A stretch of 64,000 nucleotides of DNA from IMG/VR virus record IMGVR_UViG_3300027754_000045, positions 32,001-96,000 of that record. One strand, written 5' to 3'. A model generated the notes under the pieces. The model did no database searches. It saw only the letters and a program-made list of their open reading frames with translations, and was not told the DNA's origin. Of the stretch, positions 8,638 through 57,653 are shown piece by piece. Origin of the DNA: a virus. Both the position numbers and the translations under genes were made by a program. The stretch's first letter is position 1; each line of letters starts with the position of its first letter.

Positions 8638-8652
8638 AAATAAGGAAATCTA

Positions 8653-9819: not shown

Positions 9820-9821
9820 TA

Positions 9822-11168: not shown

Positions 11169-11175
11169 ATATAAT

Positions 11176-41971: not shown

Positions 41972-42382
41972 ATGGAAACTGATGATAATGATATATTTGA
42001 TGGGCTAGGTGTGGAAATTACACTCAAAAGCAAAGACGATTTTCTTAAGGTTCGAGAAACCTTGACTCGTATGGGCGTTTCCTCTAAAAAAGAAAAGAAA
42101 TTATTTCAAAGTTGCCATATTCTACACAAGCGTGGCAGATATGCTATCATGCACTTTAAAGAATTATTAGATCTGGATGGTCTGGAAACAGATATATCAG
42201 ATTCAGATATTGGTCGTAGAAATCTTATAGTGAAGCTTTTAGTGGAATGGGGACTAGTAATCGCTGTAGATCCAGACGAATACAAAGAACCTCAACTTAC
42301 TCTGGCTCAATTAAAGATTATTCCTCACAAGGAAAAAAAAGATTGGGAGTTGTGTGTGAAGTATCATATAGGAAATGGATAA
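41972..42382 (+). CDS. regA: Translational repressor RegA
   Basis: DDFLKVRETLTR.GV.S, L.QSCHILHK.G.Y.I.HFKEL..LDG, RRN.I..LL..WGL, W.L..KY.IG. Confidence 0.97.
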   Translation: METDDNDIFDGLGVEITLKSKDDFLKVRETLTRMGVSSKKEKKLFQSCHILHKRGRYAIMHFKELLDLDGLETDISDSDIGRRNLIVKLLVEWGLVIAVDPDEYKEPQLTLAQLKIIPHKEKKDWELCVKYHIGNG

Positions 42383-42384
42383 TT

Positions 42385-43023
42385 ATGCAAACACAAGTGA
42401 TTAGTTTTTATAGTGATTTAGAAGGATCGACATATTACAGCGATCATGCAAAGCGGTTAAAAGAAGAGTTGGCACACTTTAGAGTGCCAGCCGATATACG
42501 AGAAAAGCCGTCTCTAGGATCATATCAAAAGAATTGTTTGAGCAAACCTCAATTTATCTACCAAATGCTAGTAGAAAAACAAGAGCCAGTAGTATGGCTA
42601 GACATTGATTCTTATATTCGAAAAACACCAGATATATTTGATCTGTTTACTGGAACAACCGATGTTGCCGTTTCTTGCTCAACAACCAAACTTCATGCAG
42701 CAAAAGCATCTCCAATATATTTGGCATTCAATAGCAAAGTATTAGATTTTCTTCAGCATTGGATGTTTATGGCTCGTCAAATAGAAGCTGGAGGACAATG
42801 GTTTGATCATGAAGCACTAATTGGTATTCTTCAAAAATTTCATGGACAGGAAAACTTTCATATGAAATTTATTGGTCCAGAGTATTGTGTTTGGCCTGGA
42901 GATGAAAACGAAAATACGATAATTCTTATGGGATTAGCGGATGTGGAATCAAAGAAACAATCTTTACGTGAATTAGGATATAATGAGGAACTTATAGCAT
43001 GGCAGAGTCCAGGAACAAAGTAA
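42385..43023 (+). CDS. Nucleotide-diphospho-sugar transferase (GT-A, DxD)
   Basis: N...KP.FI, VVWLDIDS, FDHEAL, L/IGPEYC motifs. Start at ATG 42385. Confidence 0.7.
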   Translation: MQTQVISFYSDLEGSTYYSDHAKRLKEELAHFRVPADIREKPSLGSYQKNCLSKPQFIYQMLVEKQEPVVWLDIDSYIRKTPDIFDLFTGTTDVAVSCSTTKLHAAKASPIYLAFNSKVLDFLQHWMFMARQIEAGGQWFDHEALIGILQKFHGQENFHMKFIGPEYCVWPGDENENTIILMGLADVESKKQSLRELGYNEELIAWQSPGTK

Positions 43024-43862
43024 GAGGCATAGGATTACCGTTTGACCCACAATACTCGTCTTGCTCTAATATAAAACCAAAAGATTTTGATTGGGTTATT
43101 ACAGCAGGCGACTGGAATGTGCATATAGACCAAGGTTTATTAATGCAACCAGATAGTACCCCAAAAGAAAAACGGTTTGGGTGGGTATGCGAATCCAAGT
43201 ATATTGTTCCAGATGTATATTGGCTTTTGACCCATAAACACAAAGAGATGTTTGAAGAATATTATACAAAAATATTCACATGCGATCAAGAATTATTGAA
43301 GTTAGATGAACGATTTGTTTATTGCCCAAACGGAAGTAATTATCCTTGGGTTCCTAAAAACAAATGGGAAGTATACACAAAAACTAAGTTATGTTCTATG
43401 TTTTGTTCTCCCAAACTAATGACCGAAGGGCATGTTTATCGACATCAAATTGCTAGACTAGCTCTACATACTGGGTTTGATGTATTTGGTGGAGCACACG
43501 GAACACCAAGAACCGTAATAGATCCTCAAAATCCATGGAACACTAAAATTGATGGGGTAAAAGATTACAGATTTAGTATTGTTATGGAGAATGGAGTTTA
43601 TGATTCTTACTGGACAGAAAAAGTCACAGATTGTTTTGCTACAGGAACTATACCAATTTACTGGGGAACAAAGAAATTACTTGACTTTTTCAAATCTGAT
43701 GGTATAATACTACTAGAAATTGGAAAAGAACAAGAAATTATGGAATCATTAACTACTGAATTATACGAATCTAAATTAAAAGCAGTAAATGCTAATTTAG
43801 AATTAGTTAAAGATATGAAACTTGCTGATGATATTTTATGGAATCATATTCATGAAAGTTGA
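42999..43862 (+). CDS. GT10 fucosyltransferase-like glycosyltransferase
   Basis: YRFSIVMENG...YWTEK..DCFATGTIPIYWG, the GT10 signature. Confidence 0.85.
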   Translation: MAESRNKVRGIGLPFDPQYSSCSNIKPKDFDWVITAGDWNVHIDQGLLMQPDSTPKEKRFGWVCESKYIVPDVYWLLTHKHKEMFEEYYTKIFTCDQELLKLDERFVYCPNGSNYPWVPKNKWEVYTKTKLCSMFCSPKLMTEGHVYRHQIARLALHTGFDVFGGAHGTPRTVIDPQNPWNTKIDGVKDYRFSIVMENGVYDSYWTEKVTDCFATGTIPIYWGTKKLLDFFKSDGIILLEIGKEQEIMESLTTELYESKLKAVNANLELVKDMKLADDILWNHIHES

Positions 43863-44211
43863 AGTATCAAATGGAGAACTTGTAGATAAATATACTATTT
43901 TATTAATTAAATCAAATAAAATATTAGATTTAATAAAACAAAAAAATATACAATTAGAATTAAAAGAAATAGCTCCACTAATAGAATCTTTAAATTTATC
44001 AAAAACTATTATTGATGAATTATTAGAAACGAATAATATATTATGGGAAATTGAAGAAGTTATTCGTGTAAAAGAAAAAAAACAAGAATTTGATGTGGAA
44101 TTTATTGAATTAGCAAGAAACGTATATAAGACAAATACAATCAGATTTAATCAAAAAACTAAAATTAACATATTAACAGAATCTAAAATAATTGAAGAAA
44201 AATCACATTGA
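43852..44211 (+). CDS. DUF6165-like protein
   Basis: VS.GEL.DK.TIL.IK, N..LW.IE..IR, F...FI.LAR.VY..N..R...K..IN....S.I.EEKS. Confidence 0.75.
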   Translation: MKVEVSNGELVDKYTILLIKSNKILDLIKQKNIQLELKEIAPLIESLNLSKTIIDELLETNNILWEIEEVIRVKEKKQEFDVEFIELARNVYKTNTIRFNQKTKINILTESKIIEEKSH

Positions 44212-44951
44212 CAAAATACATTTTAATAGATCAGCCAGCAGGATTAGGTGATATATTTTTTTTACAAAAAGCAGTAAAAAATTTAATAGATTTGGGAAAT
44301 ACAGCTATTTGGCCAGTAATATCCAATTTTAGTTATATCAAAGATTATATACAATATGAAAATTTAATTTTTGTTAATAAAGAAGAAAATTTTTCTTATA
44401 AAGAAATATTTACGGAATGTGAAATTAAACATATACAAAAACCTTTGCTTATAGAAAATTTAAAAGAATCATTAATTTATATTCCATTTATTAGAGCAGA
44501 ATCTCCCCATATGCATGGGATGAAATGTAAATATCCATTAGTACAAAATTCAAGTGATAATTGGCAAAATTATTTTAAATTTGAACGAAATATTAAAAGA
44601 GAATTAGAATTAAAAGAAAAATATAATATTCAAAATGGAGAAGAATTTATTTTTGTAAATGATTTATTTGCTTCTCCACCAGATATGCTAAGAAGAAATA
44701 TAGATATAAAAACAAACAAAAAAATAATATACAATGACGGAGAACCTTGTCATATTTTTGATTATTGTTGGTTATTTGAAAATGCTTCTGAAATTCATAC
44801 AATAGAATCTGCTTTTTGTTATCTAGCTGAAGTGTTAGATACTAATGCAAAACTTTTTATGTATTCCAGAATAATTAATGGACGACCCCAACATAATAAT
44901 TTTGATTATATAGATCACGTTTACAAAAAGAATTGGTTTAAAATACTATGA
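44208..44951 (+). CDS. Putative GT-B glycosyltransferase-like protein
   Basis: N-terminal QPAGLGDI and ENA.EIH.IES motifs; island context. Confidence 0.55.
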   Translation: MTKYILIDQPAGLGDIFFLQKAVKNLIDLGNTAIWPVISNFSYIKDYIQYENLIFVNKEENFSYKEIFTECEIKHIQKPLLIENLKESLIYIPFIRAESPHMHGMKCKYPLVQNSSDNWQNYFKFERNIKRELELKEKYNIQNGEEFIFVNDLFASPPDMLRRNIDIKTNKKIIYNDGEPCHIFDYCWLFENASEIHTIESAFCYLAEVLDTNAKLFMYSRIINGRPQHNNFDYIDHVYKKNWFKIL

Positions 44952-45652
44952 TAAAGTTTAATGACATTACTCTTATTGGTATTGACGGTACTGGAAATGA
45001 TTTTAATATATTAAAATCATTAAAATACAGTAAACAAATATTTCCAAATGCAAAGATTAAATTTTTAACATCTGGTGAACACAAACAAATTGACGAAACA
45101 ATAGAACATATAAAAATTAAAAATTTGAATTATCATGATTTTAGTAAATTTTGTTTAACAGAATGGCACGAACATATTGATACTAAATTTAGTATTAATT
45201 GTCATAATGATGGTTTTGCTGTGAATATACATGCATGGACTGATGAATTTTTAAATTATGATTATATTGGAGCTCCTTGGCCAAGACATAATTTAGAACA
45301 AAGTTCTCAAAGGTGGGAATTAGTCAAAACTGCATATAACAATTCAAATAAATTGTATTGTATTGGAAATGGTGGATTTTCTTTAAGAACAAAAAAATTA
45401 ATGCAGGCAGTAAGTAAATTATATGTAGATGAATATTACGGTATACCAGAAGATTTGGTAATTTGCGTTATATTACGAAAACAATTAGAGGAACAAGGAT
45501 TTAAATTTCCTAATAGTATAGAATTTGCTGGTAAATTTTCTTGCGAAGCACAATTTGTTGATGAATATATATTATCATCGGATAATAGTTTGGGTTTTCA
45601 TTGTGGAGGAACTCATCCTCAAAAAGTAAAATTATTGGAGTCTATATTATGA
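44948..45652 (+). CDS. DUF5672-like putative glycosyltransferase
   Basis: DGF......W..EFL.YDYIGAPW, GNGGFSLR, PED, F..E, GFH. Confidence 0.75.
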   Translation: MIKFNDITLIGIDGTGNDFNILKSLKYSKQIFPNAKIKFLTSGEHKQIDETIEHIKIKNLNYHDFSKFCLTEWHEHIDTKFSINCHNDGFAVNIHAWTDEFLNYDYIGAPWPRHNLEQSSQRWELVKTAYNNSNKLYCIGNGGFSLRTKKLMQAVSKLYVDEYYGIPEDLVICVILRKQLEEQGFKFPNSIEFAGKFSCEAQFVDEYILSSDNSLGFHCGGTHPQKVKLLESIL

Positions 45653-46644
45653 ATGTTTTAATTACAGGTGTTGCTGGTCTATTGGGTTCTCGTCTTGCTG
45701 ACTGGCTAATAGAAAACAATAAAGCAACTGTTTACGGTATTGATGATCTTTCGGGGGGGTTTATTGAAAATATAAACCCAAAGATAAACTTTTATAAAAT
45801 TAATCTGGTAACCAATAGTGAAAAATTAGAATATATTTTTAAAGAACATAATTTTGATTATATATTTCATTTTGCTGCATATGCTGCAGAAGGTCTAAGT
45901 CCATTTATTCGACAATATAATTACGAAAATAATCTTATTGCAACAACAAAATTAATTAATCTTAGTATTAAATATAATATAAAAAGATTTATATTCACCT
46001 CAACTATGGCAGTATATGGTAATGGAGAAGTTCCATTTAAAGAAACACAACAACAAGCACCTATAGATCCATATGGTATTGCAAAATATGCATGTGAAAT
46101 GGATCTTCGTGTGGCTGGCGAACAACATGGTCTTGATTGGTGTATTTTTAGACCGCATAATGTGTATGGGGCAAAACAGAATATATGGGATAAATATAGA
46201 AATGTTTTAGGTATTTGGATGTATCAACACCTTAATGGTATGCCGTTATCAATTTATGGTGATGGAGAACAAACTAGAGCATTTAGTTATATTGATGATT
46301 GTGTTCCTTATTTTTGGTTAGGTGCAATAGATGATCTTTCCTCAAAACAAATATTTAATATTGGTGGAGACGATCATATTTCTATAAACAATGCTTGTAA
46401 TTTATTATTAGATGTGATAGGATCTGGTAATAAAATTCACTTAGAGCAAAGGCACGAAGTGAAACATGCCTGGGCTACCCACGACAAGATTAAATCTATT
46501 TTGAATTTTAAATCAACTACTCCATTACAGGAGGGTCTTAGTAAAATGTGGGAATGGGCAAAAATACAACCATCCAGAGAAAGAATATTGTGGTCTAAGT
46601 ATGAATTGGAAAAAGGAATTTATAATTATTGGAGATTGAAATAA
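45649..46644 (+). CDS. NAD-dependent NDP-sugar epimerase/dehydratase
   Basis: GVAGLLG Rossmann motif, STMAVYG, YGIAK (YxxxK), GDGEQTRAFSYIDD. Confidence 0.9.
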   Translation: MNVLITGVAGLLGSRLADWLIENNKATVYGIDDLSGGFIENINPKINFYKINLVTNSEKLEYIFKEHNFDYIFHFAAYAAEGLSPFIRQYNYENNLIATTKLINLSIKYNIKRFIFTSTMAVYGNGEVPFKETQQQAPIDPYGIAKYACEMDLRVAGEQHGLDWCIFRPHNVYGAKQNIWDKYRNVLGIWMYQHLNGMPLSIYGDGEQTRAFSYIDDCVPYFWLGAIDDLSSKQIFNIGGDDHISINNACNLLLDVIGSGNKIHLEQRHEVKHAWATHDKIKSILNFKSTTPLQEGLSKMWEWAKIQPSRERILWSKYELEKGIYNYWRLK

Positions 46645-46645
46645 T

Positions 46646-47275
46646 ATGGCACAAGGTGTATACAAAATTACAGAAGAATTTGAAGAAAAAGTAGCAAAAT
46701 ACACAGGTTCTCCTTATGCCATTGCTCTTGATAATATGAGTAATGCTTTATTTCTTGCATTATATTACGAAAAGGTTCAAGGTTTAGAGATAACAATACC
46801 ATCAAGAACATATATGTCAGTTCCTTGTGAAATAATTCATGCTGGAGCAAAAGTAAAATTTGAACCAGTAGAAGGAACTAAAATTAAAGGTGCATATCAA
46901 CTTAAACCAACTAAAGTTTGGGATTGTGCTTTACGTTTTACTTCTAAGATGTATGTTCCTAATACACACATGTGTTTATCCTTTACTGGTCCGTATAAGC
47001 ATTTAAAATTAAGTAAGGGTGGAATGATACTTACAGATGACGAAAAGGCATATAATTGGTTTAAACGTGCCAGATTTAGTGGAAGAAACGAGACTTCTTA
47101 TCACGAAGACGCATTTGATATGCTTGGGTGGAACTTTTATATGATGCCAGAAATTGCTGCACGTGGTCTTCTTTTTATGACTCAATTTTATGATATCAAT
47201 GGAACACCAAAGGAAAATGAAGATATTGAATTAGGATATCCAGATTTGTCACAATACAAGATCTATACAAAATGA
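46646..47275 (+). CDS. DegT/DnrJ/EryC1/StrS-family sugar aminotransferase (short form)
   Basis: FEE.VA.YTG..YA.A, WDCA, SFTGPYKHL (PLP Lys), GGMILTDD, GWN.YM..E.AARG. Confidence 0.8.
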   Translation: MAQGVYKITEEFEEKVAKYTGSPYAIALDNMSNALFLALYYEKVQGLEITIPSRTYMSVPCEIIHAGAKVKFEPVEGTKIKGAYQLKPTKVWDCALRFTSKMYVPNTHMCLSFTGPYKHLKLSKGGMILTDDEKAYNWFKRARFSGRNETSYHEDAFDMLGWNFYMMPEIAARGLLFMTQFYDINGTPKENEDIELGYPDLSQYKIYTK

Positions 47276-47865
47276 AAAAGGCAATAATAGGAAATGGATC
47301 GTTTGCAAAAGAGATTTATTGTTATATTCGAGATAATGGGGATATGTCTGATATAGTTTTTTTTGTAGACGACCAGTATAAAACTGAAAATTGTAAAGGA
47401 TTATCTGAATTTGATCCTGAAAATTATGAAGTGGTTGTAGCAATTGCTAATCCTATAGTAAGAGAACAATTTGTCAATAAGCTTCCAAAAAATACAAAAT
47501 ATTTTACTATGATTCACAAGTCAGCACAATTATTAGATTCAAATATTAAAATTGGAGAAGGAAGTATAATATGTGCAAATGTTGTTTTAACTACCAATAT
47601 AAATTTAGGAAAACATACTCAATTAAATTTATTATCATCAATTGGTCATGATTGTGTAGTTGGTGACTACTTCACTACAGCACCAGGAGCAAAAATATCA
47701 GGGAATTGTTGTATAGGAAATAGAGTGTACATCGGAACAAATGGATCAGTTAAAGAAAAAACAAAAATTTGTGATGATGTAATCGTTGGGTTAAATGGTG
47801 GTGTTGTTAAAGATATAGAAATTCCAGGAACATATGTGGGATGTCCCACCAAAAGGATAAAATGA
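47272..47865 (+). CDS. PglD/NeuD-like sugar N/O-acetyltransferase
   Basis: G.G.FAKE, FVDD, AIANP..R, hexapeptide repeats with IGHDC, VG.P. Confidence 0.88.
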   Translation: MKKAIIGNGSFAKEIYCYIRDNGDMSDIVFFVDDQYKTENCKGLSEFDPENYEVVVAIANPIVREQFVNKLPKNTKYFTMIHKSAQLLDSNIKIGEGSIICANVVLTTNINLGKHTQLNLLSSIGHDCVVGDYFTTAPGAKISGNCCIGNRVYIGTNGSVKEKTKICDDVIVGLNGGVVKDIEIPGTYVGCPTKRIK

Positions 47866-48608
47866 TACATATATATTTTCGTCATTATAATGTTGGGGGA
47901 GATGATAATTCTTCTAGGCAAGATGGTCGTTATAAAGCACGATCTGCTCGTCGTTGGGGAAACGTGGATAGTTGGTTTAGTTATGAAAAGGTATTTCTTA
48001 ATCTACTCAGTACTACTGCTGGAACTAATGTAAAAATTAATGTTATGATGGATGGTGTTATTGAGGAAAATTGGATAGCAAAATATAAAGATAAATTTAC
48101 AGGATATCAATTTGAAGGTGGAACTGATGGATTATCGTTTCATTCAACTTTGAGTATTATTAAAAACGATACATCAATTCAACCTAATGATATAGTCTAT
48201 CTTTTGGAAAATGATTATCTTCATGTAGATGGGTGGGTTCGTAAAGTAGAAGAATTATTTGAAATGTATAATAATAATGTAAGCTATGTTTCTCTGTACG
48301 ATCATCTTGATAAATACATCTATGATCATTATTCGCATTTAAGAGAAAAAATTATTATAAGCAAAACTCACCACTGGAGAACTACTCCCAGCACAACAGG
48401 AACATTTATGTTAACTAAAAAGATTTTTGATGAAGATTATGATACACATTCAACACGAATGGATGATCATGCTAAGTTTGTATGGTTACAAGAAAACAGA
48501 CAAAGATTTTTATTAACACCTATTCCTGGATTATCAACACATTGTGTTGGAGAATGTTCTCCTACTATAGATTGGCAAGCAATTAGTGATAAAGAAATAA
48601 TATTATGA
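47862..48608 (+). CDS. Putative GT-A glycosyltransferase
   Basis: IVYLLENDYLH, YVSLYDH.DKY, HWRT.PSTT.T, PG.STH. Confidence 0.6.
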   Translation: MIHIYFRHYNVGGDDNSSRQDGRYKARSARRWGNVDSWFSYEKVFLNLLSTTAGTNVKINVMMDGVIEENWIAKYKDKFTGYQFEGGTDGLSFHSTLSIIKNDTSIQPNDIVYLLENDYLHVDGWVRKVEELFEMYNNNVSYVSLYDHLDKYIYDHYSHLREKIIISKTHHWRTTPSTTGTFMLTKKIFDEDYDTHSTRMDDHAKFVWLQENRQRFLLTPIPGLSTHCVGECSPTIDWQAISDKEIIL

Positions 48609-49216
48609 ATTCAGTTGAACAATCATATCAGTTGTTAGTGGAAAGTTCATCGGATATAAATGAACATTTGCCGACATTAAAACGATATGCAGAGGAATGT
48701 GATCATATTACTGAAATGGGTGTAAGGTGGGTTGTTTCTACATTTGCCTTTGCTGTTGCAAAACCAAAGACATTTGTGTCTATTGATATCATAGATCCTC
48801 GTAGTGATTTTGAAAATTGGAATTCTGTTTGGGGATCTGGAGAACGGCTGAATAACATAATTAAATATTGTGCTGAAAATAATGTAAATTATTCATTTTT
48901 GTTAAGTGATACCACAAAAATCACTATTGATGAAACTGATTTGTTGTTTATTGATACATTACATGAATATAATCAAATTAAAACAGAATTAAAATTACAC
49001 GGAAACAAGGCAAAAAAATATCTAATATTTCATGATACTGAAAATTTTAAATTTAGAGACGAAAGAACCCCAGACGTATATGGGTTATCAAGCAAAGATA
49101 AACTTGGAATATGGTCTGCCATTGAGGAATTTTTAATAGAAAATCCACATTGGAAGATTCATGAATTATTTACTAATTGTAATGGTCTTACTATCCTGAA
49201 ACGAGTTAATGTATGA
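48605..49216 (+). CDS. Class I SAM-dependent methyltransferase (Methyltransf_24-like)
   Basis: DI.EHL, EMGVR..VST, DLLFIDTLH.Y, FHDT, NGLT.L.R. Confidence 0.8.
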   Translation: MNSVEQSYQLLVESSSDINEHLPTLKRYAEECDHITEMGVRWVVSTFAFAVAKPKTFVSIDIIDPRSDFENWNSVWGSGERLNNIIKYCAENNVNYSFLLSDTTKITIDETDLLFIDTLHEYNQIKTELKLHGNKAKKYLIFHDTENFKFRDERTPDVYGLSSKDKLGIWSAIEEFLIENPHWKIHELFTNCNGLTILKRVNV

Positions 49217-49941
49217 TAGATTTATCAAGAGTTACTCTTGTGACTATAGATGGTAGTGGAAAAGATACTACTAAACTTCTTGAAGTTATTGATATATGTA
49301 CTCGTAAAATAAATTTTGGATCTGTTATTTTAATTACAGCAGATCCAGATATTGAATCAAACGATAAAGTTACAATTCACAGAATTCAAAAAATGACATA
49401 TCCAGAATATAATGCATTCTGTATAACTGATTTAAATGAATATATAAATACAGAGTTTTGTTTGATTGCACAAACTGATGGATTCATTTGTAAACCAACA
49501 AATTGGATGGATGAATTTTATAACTATGATTATATTGGGGCTCCTTGGATGGATGCTGAGCCTGGTTATTTTCCTTGGGTGACTGAACCAAAATATCAAG
49601 TAGGTTGTGGTGGTTTTTGTTTCCGTAGCAAGAAACTTTTACAGGCAGGAGCAGATATAAACAAAGTAGGTATAAATAAAGGATACATCACTAGGATGAC
49701 AGAGGCAGGAATGGGCGAAGATGTAATTATATGTGTATCTCTCAGAAATTATTTTGAAAAAATGGATTGTAAATTTCCTACAGGAGAATTTGCAAAAAAG
49801 TTTGCACTCGGAAGTGCTCCTTTAAAGGAAAATCAGTTAGAAACTACATTTGGATTTCATAGTAATGAATATATGCCAGAAGTGAGAAAAATGATTGAAA
49901 GGTGGGATGATTATGAAACTACAAGAAATATTAATAAATAA
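49213..49941 (+). CDS. DUF5672-like putative glycosyltransferase (paralog of 44948)
   Basis: Q.DGF....W.DEF..YDYIGAPW, VG.GGF..RS, ED, FGFH. Confidence 0.75.
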   Translation: MIDLSRVTLVTIDGSGKDTTKLLEVIDICTRKINFGSVILITADPDIESNDKVTIHRIQKMTYPEYNAFCITDLNEYINTEFCLIAQTDGFICKPTNWMDEFYNYDYIGAPWMDAEPGYFPWVTEPKYQVGCGGFCFRSKKLLQAGADINKVGINKGYITRMTEAGMGEDVIICVSLRNYFEKMDCKFPTGEFAKKFALGSAPLKENQLETTFGFHSNEYMPEVRKMIERWDDYETTRNINK

Positions 49942-50494
49942 TAAACACTGGAATTCTCCAATAGAAGGAGGACCAGGAACGGACAAAAATACAGGACATA
50001 GTTATATTTCTGGATTTTATGAAGAAGCATTTTTTCCTTATAAAACTAAACATATCTCTATTCTTGAAATAGGAATAGCAAGAGGTGATTCATTATTATT
50101 ATGGAATGAATATTTCAAAAATAGTAAATTAATTTATGGTTTAGATAACCACAATCAATTATCATCAGAAGTTAAATCACATTCAAATTTAAATATAATA
50201 TTCAATAATGCATACACAGAACAAATTGCAAACACACTTCCAACATTTGATATTGTAATTGACGATGGTCCACATAGTTTAGATTCTCAATGTATTGCTA
50301 TCTCTTTATATCTTCCAAAAGTAAATCCTGGTGGTATTTTTATAATTGAAGATGTTCAATCTGAAAGTTATATTGAAACATTTAAAAACTTAGTTCCAGA
50401 AAAATATAGAAAATATTGTGAATTTATTGATCTTCGTAAGATTAAAAATAGAGTAGATGATATGATGTTTGTTGTAAGAATTCCTGAGGAATAA
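49913..50494 (+). CDS. Class I SAM-dependent sugar O-methyltransferase-like
   Basis: GTDK...HSY...Y, ILEIGI..G.S..LW..YF, DIVIDDG.H, GG.FIIEDV. Confidence 0.8.
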   Translation: MKLQEILINNKHWNSPIEGGPGTDKNTGHSYISGFYEEAFFPYKTKHISILEIGIARGDSLLLWNEYFKNSKLIYGLDNHNQLSSEVKSHSNLNIIFNNAYTEQIANTLPTFDIVIDDGPHSLDSQCIAISLYLPKVNPGGIFIIEDVQSESYIETFKNLVPEKYRKYCEFIDLRKIKNRVDDMMFVVRIPEE

Positions 50495-50495
50495 A

Positions 50496-51299
50496 ATGCC
50501 AAAAATATATGACTGTTTTCAATTTTTTAATGAATTGGATATTTTAGAAATACGATTAAACGAACTTAATTCTGAAGTTGATTATTTTGTTATTGTTGAA
50601 GCAGAAACTAGCCATCAACTTAAACCAAAACCATTATATTTTGAAGAAAATAAAAAAAGATATAGTGAGTTTTTAGATAAAATTATTCATGTTGTTGTTC
50701 CAGCTAATAAATTTGTAACCCCAGATATTTTTAATTTTGCTCATCGTAATGACCAAATCCAAAGAGATTATTTAAGAAATGGAATAAAAGATGCAAATGA
50801 TACAGATTTTATTATTATTTCTGATTTAGATGAAATTGTTTCTAGTAAAAAATTAAACGAATATAAACATTCATCATATGGCGAACAAGGAATACCTGTT
50901 ATTTTTGAACAAAATTTTTATATGTGGTATTTAAATACTAGAGTATCTAATTATATGTGGCATAATTCTGGTATTGTAAGAAAACAAGATTTAGATAAAG
51001 TTGGTACTAGGGGATTTAAAGATAATAAAACTTGTTTAATGTATCCTAGAATAAAAAATGGTGGATGGCATTTTTCTTATATTGGCTCACCTAATCAGGT
51101 TAAAACTAAATTAGATAATTTTGCACATACAGAATTTTCACATATAAGTATAGAAAATTTAACTCAAAATAAAGAAAATTTAACCGATCCTTTGTGTAGA
51201 TCAGACGAAGGAATTAATTTTATAATTGATTCTATAGATACTATGCCAGAATATGTACAAAATAATATTGAAAAATTTAAAGAATTTATAAAACAATAA
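50496..51299 (+). CDS. GT17 (beta-1,4-GlcNAc transferase-like) glycosyltransferase
   Basis: YDCF.F.NELD.LE.RL..L...VDYFVIVE, QR, ISDLDEI, GGWHFSY, K...F.H.E. Confidence 0.85.
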   Translation: MPKIYDCFQFFNELDILEIRLNELNSEVDYFVIVEAETSHQLKPKPLYFEENKKRYSEFLDKIIHVVVPANKFVTPDIFNFAHRNDQIQRDYLRNGIKDANDTDFIIISDLDEIVSSKKLNEYKHSSYGEQGIPVIFEQNFYMWYLNTRVSNYMWHNSGIVRKQDLDKVGTRGFKDNKTCLMYPRIKNGGWHFSYIGSPNQVKTKLDNFAHTEFSHISIENLTQNKENLTDPLCRSDEGINFIIDSIDTMPEYVQNNIEKFKEFIKQ

Positions 51300-51300
51300 A

Positions 51301-51328
51301 TTGACATTTATATTATATCGTGTATAAT
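51301..51328 (+). promoter_or_regulatory. Consensus sigma70 promoter upstream of the GME-like gene
   Basis: TTGACA-16 nt-TATAAT, intergenic. Confidence 0.8.
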
Positions 51329-51354
51329 ATTAAAACAGAAAGAAGATTTATGTT

Positions 51355-52473
51355 ATGAAAAAAATATTAGTATTAGGTGGTGGCGGATTTATAGGTTCTC
51401 ATTTAGTTAAAAGACTAAAAAACGAAGGGCATTTTGTACGAGTTTGTGATTTAAAACATCCAGAGTATTCATATACTACAGCAGATGAATTTATTATTGG
51501 AGATTTAAGAAATCAAATAGTCTGTGATAGAGTATTTGATATGCAATTTGACGAAGTATATCAATTAGCAGCAGATATGGGTGGTGCTGGATATATCTTT
51601 ACTGGAGAAAATGATGCAAACGTTATGCATAATTCTGCATTAATCAATTTAAATGTAGTTGAACGATGTGTTAAAACTAAAGTAGGTCGAGTATTTTATT
51701 CTTCCTCGGCTTGTATATATCCTGCATACAATCAGCAAGATCCAAATAACCCAAAATGTTCAGAAGATAGTGCATATCCTGCTGCTCCAGATAGTGAATA
51801 TGGTTGGGAAAAATTATTCAGTGAACGATTATATCTTTCATTTAGTCGTAACTACAAATTAGATGTACGTATTGCAAGATATCATAATATTTTTGGTCCA
51901 GAAGGAACATGGAAGGGTGGTAAGGAAAAGGCTCCAGCGGCTCTTTGTCGTAAAGTATCAGAAGCAAATAATAATTCTTCTATTGAGGTATGGGGCCCTG
52001 GACAACAGACACGTTCTTTTTTATATATCGATGAATGTATAGAAGCAACCATAAGACTTATGAGATCTGATTTTACAGGACCAGTAAATATTGGTTCAGA
52101 AGAAATGATAAATATTAATGATCTTGCAAAAACTATTATTAATATTTCTAATAAAAACATTATAATTAATAATGTGAAAGGACCAGTTGGAGTTATGGGA
52201 AGAAATTCAGATAATAAATTATATAAAGAACAAATTGGTTGGGAACCATCACAACCATTAGTAGAAGGTCTTAAAATTACATATAAATGGATCGAAACAC
52301 AACACATGAGTTGTTTGTCTTTTACTAGTATTGCTCAATTAGATATTGAAGATAAAACTGGAAAAGATACAAGAGATAATCCATCAATCATAAAACCAGA
52401 ATATATTAATAATGGAAAATCAGAAAAAGTTAGTGTTGCTCAATTAGACATTGAAGATAGATTTAGGAGTTAA
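51355..52473 (+). CDS. GDP-mannose 3,5-epimerase-like extended SDR
   Basis: GGGGFIG, QLAADMGGAG.I, HN..IN, YSSSAC.YP, YGWEK, R.HNI.GP.G.W.GG.EKAPAA.CRK. Confidence 0.85.
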   Translation: MKKILVLGGGGFIGSHLVKRLKNEGHFVRVCDLKHPEYSYTTADEFIIGDLRNQIVCDRVFDMQFDEVYQLAADMGGAGYIFTGENDANVMHNSALINLNVVERCVKTKVGRVFYSSSACIYPAYNQQDPNNPKCSEDSAYPAAPDSEYGWEKLFSERLYLSFSRNYKLDVRIARYHNIFGPEGTWKGGKEKAPAALCRKVSEANNNSSIEVWGPGQQTRSFLYIDECIEATIRLMRSDFTGPVNIGSEEMININDLAKTIINISNKNIIINNVKGPVGVMGRNSDNKLYKEQIGWEPSQPLVEGLKITYKWIETQHMSCLSFTSIAQLDIEDKTGKDTRDNPSIIKPEYINNGKSEKVSVAQLDIEDRFRS

Positions 52474-53348
52474 TGATGAAAATAGTATTTTTTAATCATC
52501 ACTCTGATGAAATGTATTGGCACATCAAAACCTTTCAATCTCTTGGGCACGAATGTTGTGTAGCCACTCGTAGACTTACTTTAGAATGCGGAGAAGATTA
52601 CTGCACATTTAATGAATCTGGACTTGTGCAAAAAGGTCCAGTATTTTATAAGTGGGAACACCTTCACCCCGACATGGATTTAACCTTTACAGATACACTT
52701 GAAGGCTTTGATGCAGCAGCAACAATAAGTAAAAAAATTCCACATGTTTTGGCACCAAAAATGAAAGTATTTGCGTGTATAGTAGTAAAATACGATATTA
52801 ATAATTTTAATAATATACAAAATGTTACTAAAATAATAGCACATCCAGATGCAAAACAATGGAATGGACATTTTGTTCCTAAGTATGTTCCACCTTATGG
52901 AAAAATTGGTGATAATATCTACATAAGTCAATTAATGGAAAGATATTACACAAAATACTTAAAAGATTTAATAGAATTAAAAAAACAAGGATATCCAGTT
53001 ATTGTTGCTGGAGCAAACGAAGCACCAGATGGTGTTGTTGGTGATTTAGATTTATTACAAAATACTAGATTTTTAGTTCATGATAAAGATTATGGAATAT
53101 CTTGTGGTGCAGTATTAAAGGCTTTAGATTCAGGTTGTATGGTATACATTAGTAAAATTAATAGAATTGAAATTGGATTATCTGATGTTCCAGATAAGTG
53201 TTTTATATTTAACGATGATATTTCTATCAAAGATGCATATCATAAATATAAAAAATATGATAAATGTGATATTCAGACAACATACCGCAACGTAAGAAAC
53301 ATAAATAATGCAGTGGAGCGATTGAAAGATATTCTTTGTATGATGTAA
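52473..53348 (+). CDS. Hypothetical protein, possible GT-B glycosyltransferase
   Basis: MKIVFF start, H.K..G...GAV..A...G motif; island context. Confidence 0.45.
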   Translation: MMKIVFFNHHSDEMYWHIKTFQSLGHECCVATRRLTLECGEDYCTFNESGLVQKGPVFYKWEHLHPDMDLTFTDTLEGFDAAATISKKIPHVLAPKMKVFACIVVKYDINNFNNIQNVTKIIAHPDAKQWNGHFVPKYVPPYGKIGDNIYISQLMERYYTKYLKDLIELKKQGYPVIVAGANEAPDGVVGDLDLLQNTRFLVHDKDYGISCGAVLKALDSGCMVYISKINRIEIGLSDVPDKCFIFNDDISIKDAYHKYKKYDKCDIQTTYRNVRNINNAVERLKDILCMM

Positions 53349-53351
53349 ACC

Positions 53352-55967
53352 ATGGAAAAAATAATAATAACAGGCGGTCTTGGTTATATTGGTTCTGAAT
53401 TATGTAAATTATATTCAGGCGAAGCTCGTTTCAAAAACATAACGGTAATTGATTCTCGTTTTATTTCTGAAAGAGTTAAACAACTCAGAGATTGGGGTAT
53501 TAATTTTGTTCAAGGATCGATTTTAGACGAATCTTTTATTTCTAGTCTTATCAAAGATGCAGATGTTGTTATTCATCTTGCTGGTATAACCGATGTAGCA
53601 TATACTAAAACCGAAGCAAATGAAGAAAAAGATATTCAAATACGCCAAATAGGAATTAATGGTACTAGAAATATTATTAAATATACTAAAAAGAATTGCA
53701 AAATTATATTTCCTTCAACACACGTTGTATTTGAGGGATTTTCTGAAACTAAAATTAATATTGAAGAAACAGAACAGCCATGTCCAATTTTGACATATTC
53801 TATTGGAAAAGCACAATCAGAAATTGATATTATTCAATCTAATAAAAATTATATTATTCTTCGTTTAGCCTCAGTATACGGTTATTCTACCGATACTACA
53901 AGAATGAATATAATGCCTAATTTATTTTCTAAAATTGCATCACAGAATGGAACAATTAGTCTTTTTTCTGGTGGAATTCAATTAAAAAGTCTGGTTCCTT
54001 TAATTGATGTGGCTAGATGTATGAAATTTATGGCAGAAAATAATATAAAGAAAGAAATATTTCATCTTTCAAAAGAAACTATGACCGTTAAAGAAGTTGC
54101 AAATATCTGTAAAGAATTTAATCCTAAATTAACTATAATAGAAACAAAAGACGAAATTCCAAATCTTGGTTATACATTATCTAATAAAAAATTATTATCT
54201 ACTGGTTTTCAATTTTTATATGATATTAGACAATGTATTAAAGAAATGATTAATAATTGGTCAATCAAAGATATAAATTTAGAATTAGAATATTTAGATA
54301 AGGGTGGTAAAGAATTTGTTGATTCTCGTGGTAAAATTTTAAATTATGAACTCACAGAACCAATTAATATGATTGGTTATATTGAATCTAAAAAAGGAAC
54401 AGTAAGAGCAAATCATTATCATCCAATTCAAGAACAAAAATGTTTACTTGTTAAGGGTCAATATATTAGTGTAATAAAAGATCTTTCAATAGAAAATGGT
54501 CAAATTGAAACTAAACTAGTAAATGAAGGTGATATTGCTATTATCAAACCAAATGTTGCTCATACAATGATATTTACAGAAGATTCAATTTTCTTAAATT
54601 TGGTTCGGGGAGAGAGAGAACATTCAAATTATGGTATTACGCATACCATTCCATATATTCTTGTAGATGAAGAAACAAAAAATAGACTTCTTTTATCATA
54701 TAAAACTTCATGTAAATCGTGTGGTAATAAACATTTAGATAGAGTTATCTCTTTAGGCAATTCACCTCTAGCAAATAATCTTAAAAATTCTATAAATGAA
54801 AATACTGAAGTATATCCACTAGAAGTTAATTACTGTTCAAAGTGTCAAAATTGTCAACTTTCTGTTGTTGTACCACCAGAAAAAATGTTTGATAATTATC
54901 TTTATGTTTCTTCTACAACATCAGTTTTCAGAAACCATTTTGAAAATGTAGCTTTACAATATATTGATGAATTTAATTTAGATAATACTTCTTTAGTTGT
55001 TGATATTGGAAGTAATGATGGTGTAGGTATTAAACCATTTATGGACAGAGGAATAAAAGTAGTTGGAGTAGATCCTGCTAAAAATATTGCAAATATTGCA
55101 AATGATAAAAATATTCCAACTATAAATGAATATTTTGATCATAGCACTGCAATTAAAATTATTGAAAAATATGGAAAAGCAAAATTAGTAACTGCGTCTA
55201 ATGTTTTTGCACATTCAGATAAGTTAGTAGATATTGCTAATAGTGCTTTTGAATTATTGGATGATGATGGTGTATTTATTGTTGAAGTTCAGTATTTATT
55301 AGATACTATAAATGATTTAACTTTTGATAATATTTATCACGAACATGTAAATTATTGGAGTATTACTTCTATTAATAATTTTTTTAATAATTTAAATTTG
55401 ATAGTTTATAAAGTAGAGCACATAGATACTCATGGTGGTTCTGTAAGAGTTTATGTAAAAAGAAATGGATGCTTAATAGAGCCTAGCGTTAATATTTATC
55501 TGGAAAATGAAAATAATTTTGGTATTAAAACCTTAAAAACATATAAAGAATTTGAAAAAAATATAATTAATATTAAAAAAATTGTAAATGAAAATTTTAA
55601 AAAATTAAAAGAAAAATACGGCACAATTGCTGCATATGGTTCACCAGCAAAAGCAACAACTTCTTTAAATTATTTTGGTATTAATAATAATTATATTGAT
55701 TATACTATAGAAGATAATCAGATGAAAGATGGTAAATATATTCCTGGAGTAAATATTCCTATTAAAAATAAAGAATATTGTATATCTAATCCACCAAAAA
55801 TTATTGTTGTTCTTGCTTGGAACTTTTTTGAACATATTAAAAATAGTAACAAAATATTATTAGACATGGGAATAAGGTTTATAAATATAAAAGAGTTACA
55901 AGATATTAATTTTAAATTAGATGATAAACCACAAATAGATACTAAGAATTTTATATATTACATGTAA
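53352..55967 (+). CDS. Tri-domain fusion: SDR reductase/epimerase + cupin + NDP-sugar C-methyltransferase
   Basis: GGLGYIG and YSIGK; RANHYH...AH cupin; CKSC...LG..PLAN...C..C..QL, DIGSNDG, NVFAH, IYHEH, HGGS.R, YG.PAK, LAWNF. Confidence 0.85.
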   Translation: MEKIIITGGLGYIGSELCKLYSGEARFKNITVIDSRFISERVKQLRDWGINFVQGSILDESFISSLIKDADVVIHLAGITDVAYTKTEANEEKDIQIRQIGINGTRNIIKYTKKNCKIIFPSTHVVFEGFSETKINIEETEQPCPILTYSIGKAQSEIDIIQSNKNYIILRLASVYGYSTDTTRMNIMPNLFSKIASQNGTISLFSGGIQLKSLVPLIDVARCMKFMAENNIKKEIFHLSKETMTVKEVANICKEFNPKLTIIETKDEIPNLGYTLSNKKLLSTGFQFLYDIRQCIKEMINNWSIKDINLELEYLDKGGKEFVDSRGKILNYELTEPINMIGYIESKKGTVRANHYHPIQEQKCLLVKGQYISVIKDLSIENGQIETKLVNEGDIAIIKPNVAHTMIFTEDSIFLNLVRGEREHSNYGITHTIPYILVDEETKNRLLLSYKTSCKSCGNKHLDRVISLGNSPLANNLKNSINENTEVYPLEVNYCSKCQNCQLSVVVPPEKMFDNYLYVSSTTSVFRNHFENVALQYIDEFNLDNTSLVVDIGSNDGVGIKPFMDRGIKVVGVDPAKNIANIANDKNIPTINEYFDHSTAIKIIEKYGKAKLVTASNVFAHSDKLVDIANSAFELLDDDGVFIVEVQYLLDTINDLTFDNIYHEHVNYWSITSINNFFNNLNLIVYKVEHIDTHGGSVRVYVKRNGCLIEPSVNIYLENENNFGIKTLKTYKEFEKNIINIKKIVNENFKKLKEKYGTIAAYGSPAKATTSLNYFGINNNYIDYTIEDNQMKDGKYIPGVNIPIKNKEYCISNPPKIIVVLAWNFFEHIKNSNKILLDMGIRFINIKELQDINFKLDDKPQIDTKNFIYYM

Positions 55968-55982
55968 AGAGAAAGTTAAATT

Positions 55983-57227
55983 ATGCCTAAATTATGCCTA
56001 TCGATGATTGTTAAAAATGAAACTCACATTATCAAAGAATGCCTGGATTCAATCTACAAGTATGTGGATTACTGGGTCATTGTGGATACTGGTTCCACAG
56101 ACGGAACTCAAGAGTTAATTAAAAACTTCTTTGCCGAGAAGGGTATTCCTGGAGAACTTCATGAACGCCCATGGGTAGGATTCGGTGATAACCGCACAGA
56201 GGCTCTACAACTCTGCGACGGCAAGGCAGACTGGGCATGGATGATTGATGCCGACGACTATGTGGAAGGAGAGTTTCAGTTTCCGTTTAATGTGGGAGAA
56301 GTTGAAGCATTTGCTCTTGCGTTTGGTCGTGGCGAGTTCAGTTGGTGGAGAACTCAGATTTTCCGCACAGGTATTGGCTGGAGATACGAAGGCATTCTTC
56401 ACGAGTACCCAACAAAGCCAAATGTGGAAACTACTCCTCCAAAGATTGCAAAGCTGGAAGGAAAATATAAAATTGTTGCTCGCACCGTTGGAGCACGTAA
56501 TGTAGGCATTGATCCTATCGAGAAGTATAAACGGGATGCCATCATGTTGGAAGAAGTTCTGGTTAAGGAACCAAACAATGTAAGATACCAGTTCTATCTG
56601 GCTCAAAGCTATTTTGACTCTCAGCAATGGGAAAAGGCAGAAGCCGCCTACAAGAAGCGTGTAGAGATGGGTGGCTGGGAAGAAGAGCAATACTATTCAG
56701 CTTTTCGTATCGCCATGTGCCGTGGTCTTGCCAACAAGCCTTGGATCGAAATTCAGCAAGGATTCCTAGAATCCTGGGAACTTCGACCACACCGAGCAGA
56801 GCCTCTTCATCAGATTGCACGAGTCTACCGAATGATGGGTCATCCACGACTAGCCTTCTTATACGCAAAGATGGCTCTTGATATTCCGTATCCAAAGGAT
56901 GATATCTTGTTCGTCTCCGAAGATGTCTACAAGCATGCTGTTCTAGACGAAATTGCTTCCACTGCTTTCTATGCAGGAAAGCCTCATATGGGATACTCTG
57001 CCTGCAAGAAACTATTACTGGAAAACCTGCTTCCTCCAGATCAGGTTGAGCGTGTGCAAACCAATCTGAGTCAATACTTAAAGTTCTTTGAACAAAGTAA
57101 TCAAATGGAGATTATCAAGCAGTTAGATGAACAAGCCTCAAAACAAGCCGAAAAACGAGACCATAAACCTGCCCTATTTCCAGCACAAAAAAAGAACTTT
57201 AAAACTAGAAAACCAGTACATCGATAA
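55983..57227 (+). CDS. GT2 glycosyltransferase with C-terminal TPR repeats
   Basis: L.MIVKNE...I.ECLDS, VDTGSTDGT, F...R..AL, IDADD, W.Y.G.LHE, then TPR-like RY.FYLAQSY.D and P.RAEP. Confidence 0.9.
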   Translation: MPKLCLSMIVKNETHIIKECLDSIYKYVDYWVIVDTGSTDGTQELIKNFFAEKGIPGELHERPWVGFGDNRTEALQLCDGKADWAWMIDADDYVEGEFQFPFNVGEVEAFALAFGRGEFSWWRTQIFRTGIGWRYEGILHEYPTKPNVETTPPKIAKLEGKYKIVARTVGARNVGIDPIEKYKRDAIMLEEVLVKEPNNVRYQFYLAQSYFDSQQWEKAEAAYKKRVEMGGWEEEQYYSAFRIAMCRGLANKPWIEIQQGFLESWELRPHRAEPLHQIARVYRMMGHPRLAFLYAKMALDIPYPKDDILFVSEDVYKHAVLDEIASTAFYAGKPHMGYSACKKLLLENLLPPDQVERVQTNLSQYLKFFEQSNQMEIIKQLDEQASKQAEKRDHKPALFPAQKKNFKTRKPVHR

Positions 57228-57242
57228 AGCCTAAATACACGT

Positions 57243-57653
57243 ATGACCGCAAAATACGACTTAACAATCAATAAAGGTTCTAATTTTGAGTTTTGGCTTC
57301 AGTATCAAAGAGAAGACAACACTCCAGTCGATTTAAGTGCGTATACTGCCGCACTGGTAGTTAAACGATTTAAAGGACAAGAATATCCTATTTTGTCTAT
57401 GAATAATTCTGGCTTGACTTATGGGTATAGTTCTGGAAATACTCTTGGTCTTTCTGGTTCGGGCAATATAAGTCTTAATACAGATTATGACGGAACAGGA
57501 ATTACTGGAGGAATTTCTGTAAATATCACAGCAAACACAACAAAAAAACTAACTTCAGGAAGTCATTTTTATGATTTAAATTTGATGATAGGAATTACGT
57601 ATTCTCAAAAACTTCTTGAAGGAAAGATTTTCATACAAGACGGATCACGTTAA
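57243..57653 (+). CDS. Small virion structural protein (BppU-N/Ig-like)
   Basis: YDL.I.KGS.F, P.DL..Y, I...I.A..T..L..G...YDL, LLEG.I; CTAAATA late-promoter-like site just upstream. Confidence 0.6.
   Translation: MTAKYDLTINKGSNFEFWLQYQREDNTPVDLSAYTAALVVKRFKGQEYPILSMNNSGLTYGYSSGNTLGLSGSGNISLNTDYDGTGITGGISVNITANTTKKLTSGSHFYDLNLMIGITYSQKLLEGKIFIQDGSR

Follow-up and report, generated by a model that had tools for sequence, protein, structure and literature searches.

A replaceable sugar-gene cassette between regA and gp43 of an uncultured T4-like phage, and its possible role in strain-specific virion glycosylation

Introduction

Clusters of sugar genes beside fibre genes are already known from marine T4-like phages such as P-SSM2, S-SCSM2R and the pelagimyophages, in which a hypervariable region carries glycosyltransferases, nucleoside diphosphate-sugar epimerases and methyltransferases, often next to the tail-fibre genes. 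These 'LPS' (lipopolysaccharide) or host-recognition clusters have been read for twenty years as modifiers of host LPS without any test of that function. We describe here a locus of similar content in a 64,000-nucleotide stretch of viral DNA (hereafter the window), which corresponds to bases 32001-96000 of the 153,850-bp IMG/VR record IMGVR_UViG_3300027754_000045, a record estimated to be about 85% complete. The locus (positions 42385-57227) consists of 17 open reading frames (ORFs), o01 to o17, the last of which encodes a glycosyltransferase of family GT2 joined to TPR repeats (GT2-TPR) and is followed by a gene for a 136-aa protein, o18. The marine clusters lie between VrlC and gp14, whereas this locus occupies the interval between regA and gp43 and, in further contrast, has conserved transferases at its flanks, a cassette that is cleanly replaced within sharp boundaries between phages of about 93% identity, and the GT2-TPR/o18 pair at its end; position, cassette swap, transferase frame and gene pair are what is new.

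Bacterial O-antigen and capsule loci likewise combine conserved flanks with an exchangeable sugar cassette of nucleotide-sugar genes and several transferases, although the present locus differs from them in having no Wzx, Wzy or ABC exporter and no priming transferase. Among viruses, the PBCV-1 A64R enzyme with its capsid glycans and the fibrils of mimivirus offer examples of a virus-encoded, cytoplasmic and membrane-independent rare-sugar pathway that acts on surface proteins or fibrils, but these are viruses of eukaryotes, and the match of o01 to A64R is one of the generic GT-A fold (TM-score 0.6). In mycobacteriophages, soluble phage-encoded transferases were reportedly shown by Freeman et al. 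in 2023 to glycosylate virion proteins. In those actinobacteriophages a few transferases are at work, whereas the present locus, which belongs to a T4-like phage, comprises about 17 genes that provide for donor synthesis as well, and has a cassette swap and candidate targets of fibre type. The mycobacteriophage glycans are described, in work cited in PMC12619734 and PMC12801897, as being carried by capsid and tail-tube subunits, at their C-termini.

A replaceable cassette framed by conserved transferases

The major head protein of the record (29672-31096) is 54-56% identical to that of marine Synechococcus T4-like phages, which identifies a T4-like myovirus, and gp46, a gp47-like exonuclease, gp45, gp44, gp62 and regA run in the T4 order. 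A preliminary description of the window had given the T4 order as 45-44-62-regA-43, which agrees with NC_000866, where regA abuts gene 43, and had noted that gp43 is missing from the window; the gene is in fact found at window-equivalent positions 72447-75020, 30 kb past regA and 15 kb past the sugar genes. Into the gap thus opened between regA and gp43 fall the glycan genes, the 136-aa gene and genes for a 2,513-aa IPT/TIG protein, for a fibre protein of collagen-like type and for a structural or tailspike-like protein of 1,140 aa, together with four small genes. The photosynthesis gene psbA was not found in the record.

The tight packing of the genes noted in the preliminary description is borne out, as the ORFs are all on the same strand and mostly overlap by 1-50 nt, with just two intergenic gaps of 55 nt (51300-51354) and 15 nt (55968-55982). 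The number of genes given there, 16, has to be raised to 17, which is also what its own list adds up to. The GC content of individual genes is heterogeneous and ranges from 0.20 to 0.44.

The locus was compared with related IMG/VR loci (80 retrieved by regA, 40 by the o16 fusion gene and 80 by GT2-TPR; L numbers below refer to these). Within the closest relatives regA is 94-100% and gp43 98-99% identical. Compared with the nearest of these, the nucleotide sequence is 93% identical as far as position 43850, 12 nt before the stop codon of o02; no identity can then be detected for 12.1 kb, until it returns at 84% at position 55977, 6 nt before the start of the GT2-TPR gene. Five relatives with flanks of 77-94% identity have no similarity to the cassette except for one stretch of 68% in one relative, over the methyltransferase half of o16. 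The cassette has a GC content of about 0.28, compared with 0.33-0.35 for the genome. Because similarity is lost so sharply between the stop of o02 and the GT2-TPR gene, the real unit is a replaceable cassette (o03 to o16) framed by three conserved transferases (o01, o02 and o17); the 15-kb glycan locus of the preliminary description is thus real, but it is not a single island. This pattern indicates that recombination is swapping the cassette whole between otherwise near-identical phages, in the manner of bacterial serotype loci.

In place of the cassette the nearest relative has a segment of 11.8 kb with different sugar genes, among them two for short-chain dehydrogenase/reductases (SDRs), of which one resembles a GDP-mannose dehydratase, one for a DegT protein of full length, and others for methyltransferases and for proteins of GT2- and GT10-like type. 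The alternative cassette (L046:5636-8017, L127:565-9980) adds a three-domain thiamine pyrophosphate-dependent enzyme and a DJ-1/glutamine-amidotransferase-like protein, and the presence of these two genes beside SDRs and DegT suggests a different branched or amino sugar. More widely, 141 protein families occur downstream of regA in 43 relatives, with FkbM and other methyltransferases, GT2, SDR, GT25, GT11, GT47 and GT10 as the leading Pfam families; families for export are missing from the 25 commonest.

The two proximal transferases are present after regA in most loci (o01 in 73 and o02 in 75 of 88 regA-matching loci, these being the 80 loci fetched by regA and some of those fetched by the fusion gene). 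A Pfam search with o01 gave no match, although W71-x-D73-x-D75 is invariant and H142 conserved in an alignment of 22 homologues, and its AlphaFold2 (AF2) model (pLDDT 90) finds in Foldseek the PBCV-1 A64R capsid glycosyltransferase as best match (2p6w, E 2e-8), followed by GT6, GT8 and GT34. The A64R match lends weak support to virion glycosylation, as other GT-A enzymes score similarly.

The GT2-TPR transferase and its partner gene

The GT2-TPR gene was found in 126 viral loci, and its product is 84-92% identical in close relatives. A phmmer search of the PDB with o17 returned GmaR (E 4.7e-9, residues 4-97), 7msk (6e-8, 2-256) and SunS (8.6e-6, 2-227), the last two of which we take to be glycocin S/O-glycosyltransferases, SunS deriving from the SPbeta prophage; no other GT2 structure, those of polysaccharide GT2 enzymes included, passed in that search. 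Designed TPR proteins in the PDB are also matched, and seven TPR-type Pfam families align to residues 184-301 (E 4e-6 to 9e-3), each below its cut-off. In 17 homologues neither the motif DxGSxD (35-40) nor D89-A-D-D92 varies.

GmaR is the flagellin O-GlcNAc transferase of Listeria, in which the transferase domain is followed by TPRs that have been proposed to bind flagellin (PMC9638930). Like o17, both GmaR and SunS have an N-terminal GT2 domain (GT-A fold) ahead of TPR or helical repeats, and both are soluble, cytoplasmic enzymes that act on a folded protein or peptide. GmaR differs in its low identity to o17, with a match that spans only about the first 95 residues, and o17 is without the antirepressor domain. 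On these likenesses o17 is a candidate protein-priming enzyme, and its location in a multi-transferase locus implies that the glycan is extended beyond one sugar.

The ORF that follows GT2-TPR encodes 131-185 aa in 71 of the 73 loci that have downstream sequence, and in 57 of the 73 (78%) it belongs to the o18 family. The members of this family share a near-invariant G-x-T-x-G that is followed by a variable loop, and o18 itself has no paralogue elsewhere in the genome. Between the same relatives (L126-L129, L169) o18 is 46-55% identical at the amino-acid level, as against 84-92% for GT2-TPR and 73-84% for the collagen-like gene, a fast divergence that is as would be expected of an exposed or co-evolving protein. 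A similar linkage has been described in Clostridioides difficile, where the gene of the transferase SgtA adjoins that of its collagen-like surface-protein substrate BclA3 (PMC7157674), the likeness being drawn from the description.

A collagen-like ORF lies downstream of GT2-TPR in 14 of the 42 loci with at least 6 kb of downstream sequence, and in locus L026 the GT2-TPR gene stands between gp62 and a collagen-like gene without any cassette. In tblastn searches the matches of GT2-TPR were confined to jumbo or huge phages and a small number of fragments; the GT2-TPR/o18 pair was absent from cultured T4-like phages, and o18 was matched nowhere. As a separate observation, a dUTPase with the motif GGFGSTG takes the place directly 3' of GT2-TPR in 12 of the 73 loci (e.g. 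L177, L178, L179, L183, L185, L191).

Absence of membrane and lipid-carrier components

The preliminary description had found no flippase, polymerase or lipid-carrier glycosyltransferase and no obvious transmembrane protein in the island, and the first of these statements can be extended to the whole 154-kb record, while the second is supported by the prediction that all 17 products are soluble. No membrane-spanning segment was detected in the island, the sole window above threshold being a Rossmann strand in o06, with translation taken to start at an upstream TTG. A Kyte-Doolittle scan of all 153,850 bp detected at most two hydrophobic segments in any ORF and hence no polytopic membrane protein. 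Flippase, polymerase, ligase and exporter are all missing from the record, at its estimated completeness of about 85%, and as to a priming phosphoglycosyl transferase the record holds neither a match to PF02397 (Bac_transf) nor a polytopic ORF of the WecA/MraY type.

Fibre genes, expression signals and G-x-T motifs

Motifs of the type TAAATA or TATAAATA stand at -12/-13 of the o18, collagen-like and tailspike-like genes, as they do in recognised structural genes: CCTAAATA is found at -13 of o18, positioned like the late-promoter motifs of those genes, and a perfect TATAAATA at -12/-13 before the collagen-like and the 1,140-aa genes. Inside the island TATAAATA was rejected as evidence of late expression, as its count over the whole genome is close to chance and it stands in no case at -10 to -30 of an island gene. 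A perfect sigma-70-type promoter occupies the only sizeable gap of the island, upstream of o14 (by estimate, about 0.05 such matches would be expected by chance in the region), and is likely to divide the island into two transcription units, o01-o13 and o14-o17.

Compared with shuffled sequences, several non-core fibre or baseplate ORFs have an excess of G-x-T (z 3.5-6.2). The G-x-T-rich ORFs of the structural module comprise six large ones (window 6217-14960; genome 21620-22849 and 27388-29247), of which four have no PHROG match, one has a weak tail-fibre match and one matches a baseplate wedge protein at its N-terminus only; these look like clade-specific appendage proteins. No such excess was seen in the island and replication proteins, nor in 21 T4 virion proteins and T4 UvsW (maximum z 1.6).

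The giant IPT/TIG gene beyond o18 was considered as a conserved partner of the island and rejected, as TIG domains are absent from five related records and no such gene is present in the nearest relatives; it is a strain-specific insertion of 7.8 kb between o18 and the collagen-like gene and is independent of the cassette. A partial homologue of the giant protein, 51% identical, was seen in the more distant locus L130.

Proposed virion glycosylation and its alternatives

It is proposed that the locus serves strain-specific glycosylation of virion or fibre proteins, a reading to which we give about an even chance, because its target is placed by homology and gene linkage only. The sequences show the gene content, the predicted solubility, the sharp replacement of the cassette, the homology of GT2-TPR and its linkage to o18; what we infer for the acceptor, for the sugars and for the role of the locus product is as follows. 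From host nucleotide sugars the cassette would derive unusual donors: the GDP-mannose 3,5-epimerase o14 would yield a GDP-L-hexose, an SDR, a half-size DegT protein and an acetyltransferase (o06-o08) an N-acetylated amino sugar, and the SDR-C-methyltransferase fusion o16 a 3-C-methyl-6-deoxyhexose, with the 4-keto-6-deoxy substrate assumed to be supplied by the host. Methyltransferases would add O-methyl caps, and the cassette would also bring several extra transferases. The GT2-TPR enzyme would hold a protein by its TPR and attach an initial sugar to Ser/Thr (or Cys), with the adjacent o18 and/or the neighbouring fibre proteins as acceptor. The soluble transferases of the frame and the cassette would then lengthen the glycan while the protein is still in the cytoplasm, ahead of virion assembly, so that the appendages of each phage strain would bear a glycan type of their own.

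A broader formulation, to which we commit ourselves more tentatively, is that of a 'virion serotype locus' in abundant uncultured aquatic T4-like phages, where GT2-TPR and its 136-aa partner prime, the conserved transferases add a core, and the cassette adds an outer glycan of rare sugars. If this were so, the glycan diversity of the particles might be under diversifying selection like that acting on O-antigens, which is put forward with similar reserve.

The preliminary description had argued that a soluble, sequential cytoplasmic pathway fits glycosylation of protein or virion better than conversion of the host O-antigen. The solubility of the products, the missing genes for lipid-linked steps, the homology of GT2-TPR and the linkage to o18 and fibre genes speak for this view, which is qualified by an acceptor that is inferred and by an island without late motifs. 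Several further observations weigh against it. Transferases without a transmembrane segment are normal in the lipid-linked assembly of O-antigen and capsule, where peripheral transferases require none, and host machinery could export the product. None of the island genes is preceded by a late-promoter motif, and the genome-wide count of TATAAATA is about the chance rate; the location of o14-o17 behind a perfect sigma-70-type promoter indicates early expression. Fusions of the o16 type are common to cellular genomes, where they presumably serve cell-surface glycans. As a glycosylation 'sequon' G-x-T gives weak support at best: in the giant protein the excess simply reflects the consensus of the IPT/TIG repeats, and the collagen-like protein, rich in GxQ and GxK, has one G-x-T. 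Finally, similar clusters in P-SSM2, pelagimyophages and S-SCSM2R have as their standard reading the modification of host LPS (PMC1079782, PMC7029224, PMC12801897).

Applied to the present locus, remodelling of the host surface would mean that early enzymes draw off host nucleotide sugars and decorate the lipid-linked O-antigen, capsule or S-layer intermediates of the host, or surface proteins such as pilins and flagellins, which we regard as rather unlikely but as a serious rival; it is likewise rather unlikely that a host flippase or ligase exports the product and that the altered surface then blocks superinfection or other enemies. The position of the island in the early/middle block of replication genes, with a sigma-70-type promoter and no late motifs, would suit this scenario, as would the homologues of cassette genes, 52-69% identical, in aquatic bacterial genomes. 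It is difficult to reconcile with 154 kb of sequence that hold no priming transferase, flippase, polymerase, ligase or Gtr-type gene, or with o17, the one enzyme with informative homologues, which indicates protein acceptors and whose pairing with o18 and fibre genes fits no obvious role in LPS. Moreover, a lytic T4-like cycle presumably leaves little time for turnover of the surface. Far less probable, indeed very improbable, is the building of glycans on modified DNA bases in the manner of the T4 alpha- and beta-glucosyltransferases, an option that the preliminary description had kept in brackets. The position is analogous to that of the T4 43-imm-42-b-gt block, a 160-aa gene before gp43 has a weak match, below cut-off, to DUF1599 ('nucleotide modification associated', E 5e-4), and diverse viral DNA glycans are on record (Pyle et al. 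2024, as cited in PMC12619734). Nevertheless, the record has neither a ThyA-type hydroxymethylase (PF00303) nor a C5 methylase (PF00145), an absence that is no proof in a record about 85% complete, and the presence of ThyX implies ordinary thymidine; a Tet/JBP profile (PF12851) had no match in the record, but none in its control either. Nine transferase candidates with branched and methylated sugars would far exceed the known needs of DNA glycans, and the kinship of GT2-TPR is with protein transferases.

One might also suppose that there is no single product, and that the locus is a hypervariable pool of auxiliary sugar genes of horizontal origin ('morons') whose roles would be mixed or redundant, its linkage to fibre genes being that of a shared plastic region. 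This we hold to be improbable, though less so than DNA glycosylation. The wide GC range of the genes and the mosaic gene content among relatives are what such a pool would show, and the fibre genes in the regA-gp43 gap are likewise variable. The cassette boundaries, however, fall at gene ends, alternative cassettes are of similar length, the genes are co-oriented and overlap tightly, both this cassette and the annotated alternative join donor synthesis with transferases, and GT2-TPR is paired with o18 in 78% of loci.

The locus makes the question of host LPS versus virion testable, as it offers a two-gene core (o17 and o18) and natural cassette variants in phages that are about 93% identical. 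If a virion glycan is indeed its product, particles of very abundant viruses would have serotype-like diversity, with effects on adsorption and host range, on how they stick to mucus and particles, and on their grazing and decay; virion glycosylation, so far a matter of a few mycobacteriophages, would reach environmental myoviruses too; and the locus would be a source of rare-sugar enzymes, including a very common half-size DegT-like protein.

Enzymes of the cassette

The features of the locus are collected in Table 1. Of the genes assigned in the preliminary description, the DUF6165 gene, the acetyltransferase and the C-methyltransferase fusion are all supported by Pfam matches, and six of its up to nine candidate glycosyltransferases can be upheld (the GT-A, GT10-like, GT17, GT2-TPR, GT4-like GT-B and GT-A-like proteins), whereas both DUF5672 proteins and o04 remain candidates. 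Of its two O-methyltransferases o12 is upheld, while o10, with a sub-threshold Pfam match, no BLAST similarity to o12 and no match in the PDB, was rejected as the second one and stays a possible methyltransferase. The aminotransferase retains its DegT homology but is of half size (209 aa) and has no C-terminal domain.

Table 1. Positions in the window, strand and supporting evidence of the features discussed.
Feature	Position	Strand	Evidence
regA translational repressor, upstream anchor of the locus	41972..42382	+	PHROG 242, E 1e-50
o01, conserved GT-A glycosyltransferase, 212 aa	42385..43023	+	AF2 fold, invariant motifs
o02, conserved GT10-like (fucosyltransferase-type) transferase	42999..43862	+	Pfam PF00852, 31.3 bits, above cut-off
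Replaceable 12.1-kb cassette, 14 genes (o03-o16)	43863..55982	+	Nucleotide comparison with relatives
o03, DUF6165 protein (likely start 43852)	43822..44211	+	Pfam PF19662, 33.4 bits
o04, 247 aa, large family, N-terminal QPAGLGD motif, candidate transferase	44208..44951	+	684 representatives at E<=1e-3
o05, DUF5672 protein, candidate transferase	44948..45652	+	Pfam PF18922, 65 bits; QDDG and YDYIGAPW motifs
o06, extended SDR, epimerase/reductase type	45649..46644	+	Pfam Epimerase, 155 bits; STMAVYG and YxxxK motifs
o07, half-size DegT-like protein, 209 aa	46646..47275	+	Alignment to DegT aminotransferases in PDB
o08, PglD/NeuD/VioB-type sugar N-acetyltransferase	47272..47865	+	Pfam PglD_N and Hexapep; 4-nt overlap with o07 stop
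o09, GT-A-like fold protein, invariant E-N-D motif	47862..48608	+	AF2 pLDDT 80
o10, possible class-I methyltransferase	48605..49216	+	Methyltransf_24, E 0.013, below cut-off
o11, second DUF5672 protein, candidate transferase	49213..49941	+	Pfam PF18922, 74 bits
o12, Methyltransf_24 methyltransferase	49895..50494	+	Pfam PF13578, 33.3 bits, above cut-off
o13, GT17-family transferase	50496..51299	+	Pfam PF04724, 83 bits
Sigma-70-type promoter, TTGACA-16 nt-TATAAT, in the sole sizeable gap, upstream of o14	51301..51328	+	12/12 match
o14, GDP-mannose 3,5-epimerase homologue	51355..52473	+	PDB 2c59, E 9e-95, 321 bits
o15, GT-B (GT4-like) transferase	52473..53348	+	ESM Atlas model, GT4 clusters at TM-score 0.72-0.75
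o16, fusion of SDR, Zn-binding part and sugar 3-C-methyltransferase	53352..55967	+	Pfam PF08421, PF13489, PF08484
o17, GT2-TPR transferase, conserved distal anchor, GC 0.44	55983..57227	+	Pfam PF00535, 48.5 bits
o18, 136-aa Gly/Ser/Thr-rich protein, candidate acceptor/adaptor	57243..57653	+	PHROG 1084
2,513-aa protein with at least 10 IPT/TIG domains, fibre-like	57653..64000 (to window-equivalent 65194)	+	Pfam TIG, E 9e-107

The half-size DegT-like protein o07 aligns with DegT aminotransferases of the PDB at residues 8-76 and 107-177 only (PDB positions 34-103 and 172-240), so that, relative to the complete DegT/DnrJ/EryC1 enzymes of about 360-400 aa and two domains, some 70 internal residues and the whole C-terminal domain are missing. 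The SFxxxK region appears to be kept, and the alignment, which has a gap here, sets K118 (SFTGPYK) opposite the region of the family lysine. The protein is not a pseudogene product, since the short form constitutes a huge and strongly conserved family (7,913 hits, with lengths of 207-228 aa and identities of 74-100% among the best 120, and with some from Tara Oceans). In these loci it is always paired with the PglD-like acetyltransferase, and the same pair occurs in the cultured Flavobacterium phage immuto (NC_055915; 66% identical). The acetyltransferase o08 scores 158.7 bits with TIGR03570, against a cut-off of 160.8. The SDR o06 is without the TDE signature of the RmlB-type 4,6-dehydratases, and its NCBIfam matches are all below cut-off. 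As no 4,6-dehydratase was recognised and no nucleotidyltransferase seen in the island, host precursors would have to feed the pathway.

Among the candidate transferases, o04 has no match in Pfam or the PDB, profile search included, although its family was searched exhaustively with HMMER. The alignment of DUF5672 with GT-A proteins has an hhalign probability of 0.2%, and a profile search of the PDB came back empty. The model of o09 finds the glycosyltransferase domain of LH3, KfiA and GnT-I in Foldseek at TM-scores of about 0.5, and the protein has 516 homologous clusters, some from Tara Oceans. No Pfam match was obtained for o15, whose close homologue clusters number just 12. The DUF6165 gene o03 co-occurs with o04 in loci L055 and L123, and with o05 in L123.

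The C-terminal half of o16 is of the TylC3/TcaB9 type of NDP-hexose 3-C-methyltransferases, with a Zn-binding N-domain, a SAM domain and a C-terminal domain by Pfam. Residues 452-844 match the sugar methyltransferase 4rv9 (E 2e-68), TcaB9 is matched at E 6e-49, and the SDR part matches 6vo6, while the middle part is cupin-like only by an E of 0.37 to the Cap5F cupin; the predicted product of o16 is a branched 6-deoxy sugar. The fusion was found in 40 viral loci and in 33 loci of cellular genomes, with full-length homologues of 52-69% identity in genomes of SAR11 (Pelagibacteraceae), the SUP05 type (Pseudothioglobus), SAR86, Ca. Actinomarina, Patescibacteria and Flavobacterium. A megablast search of 50,697 phage records with the island returned a single match, of 71% over the fusion gene of a 642-kb metagenomic phage, and no close relative among cultured phages.

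The assignment of o14 rests on an alignment of residues 3-316 with 31-341 of 2c59, on the motifs SSSACIYP and YGWEK, and on the distance to the next family, which scores 97 bits; its products would be GDP-L-galactose or GDP-L-gulose. The protein has an extra C-terminal tail of 55 aa (residues 317-372; window 52305-52473) in which the motif AQLDIED occurs twice.

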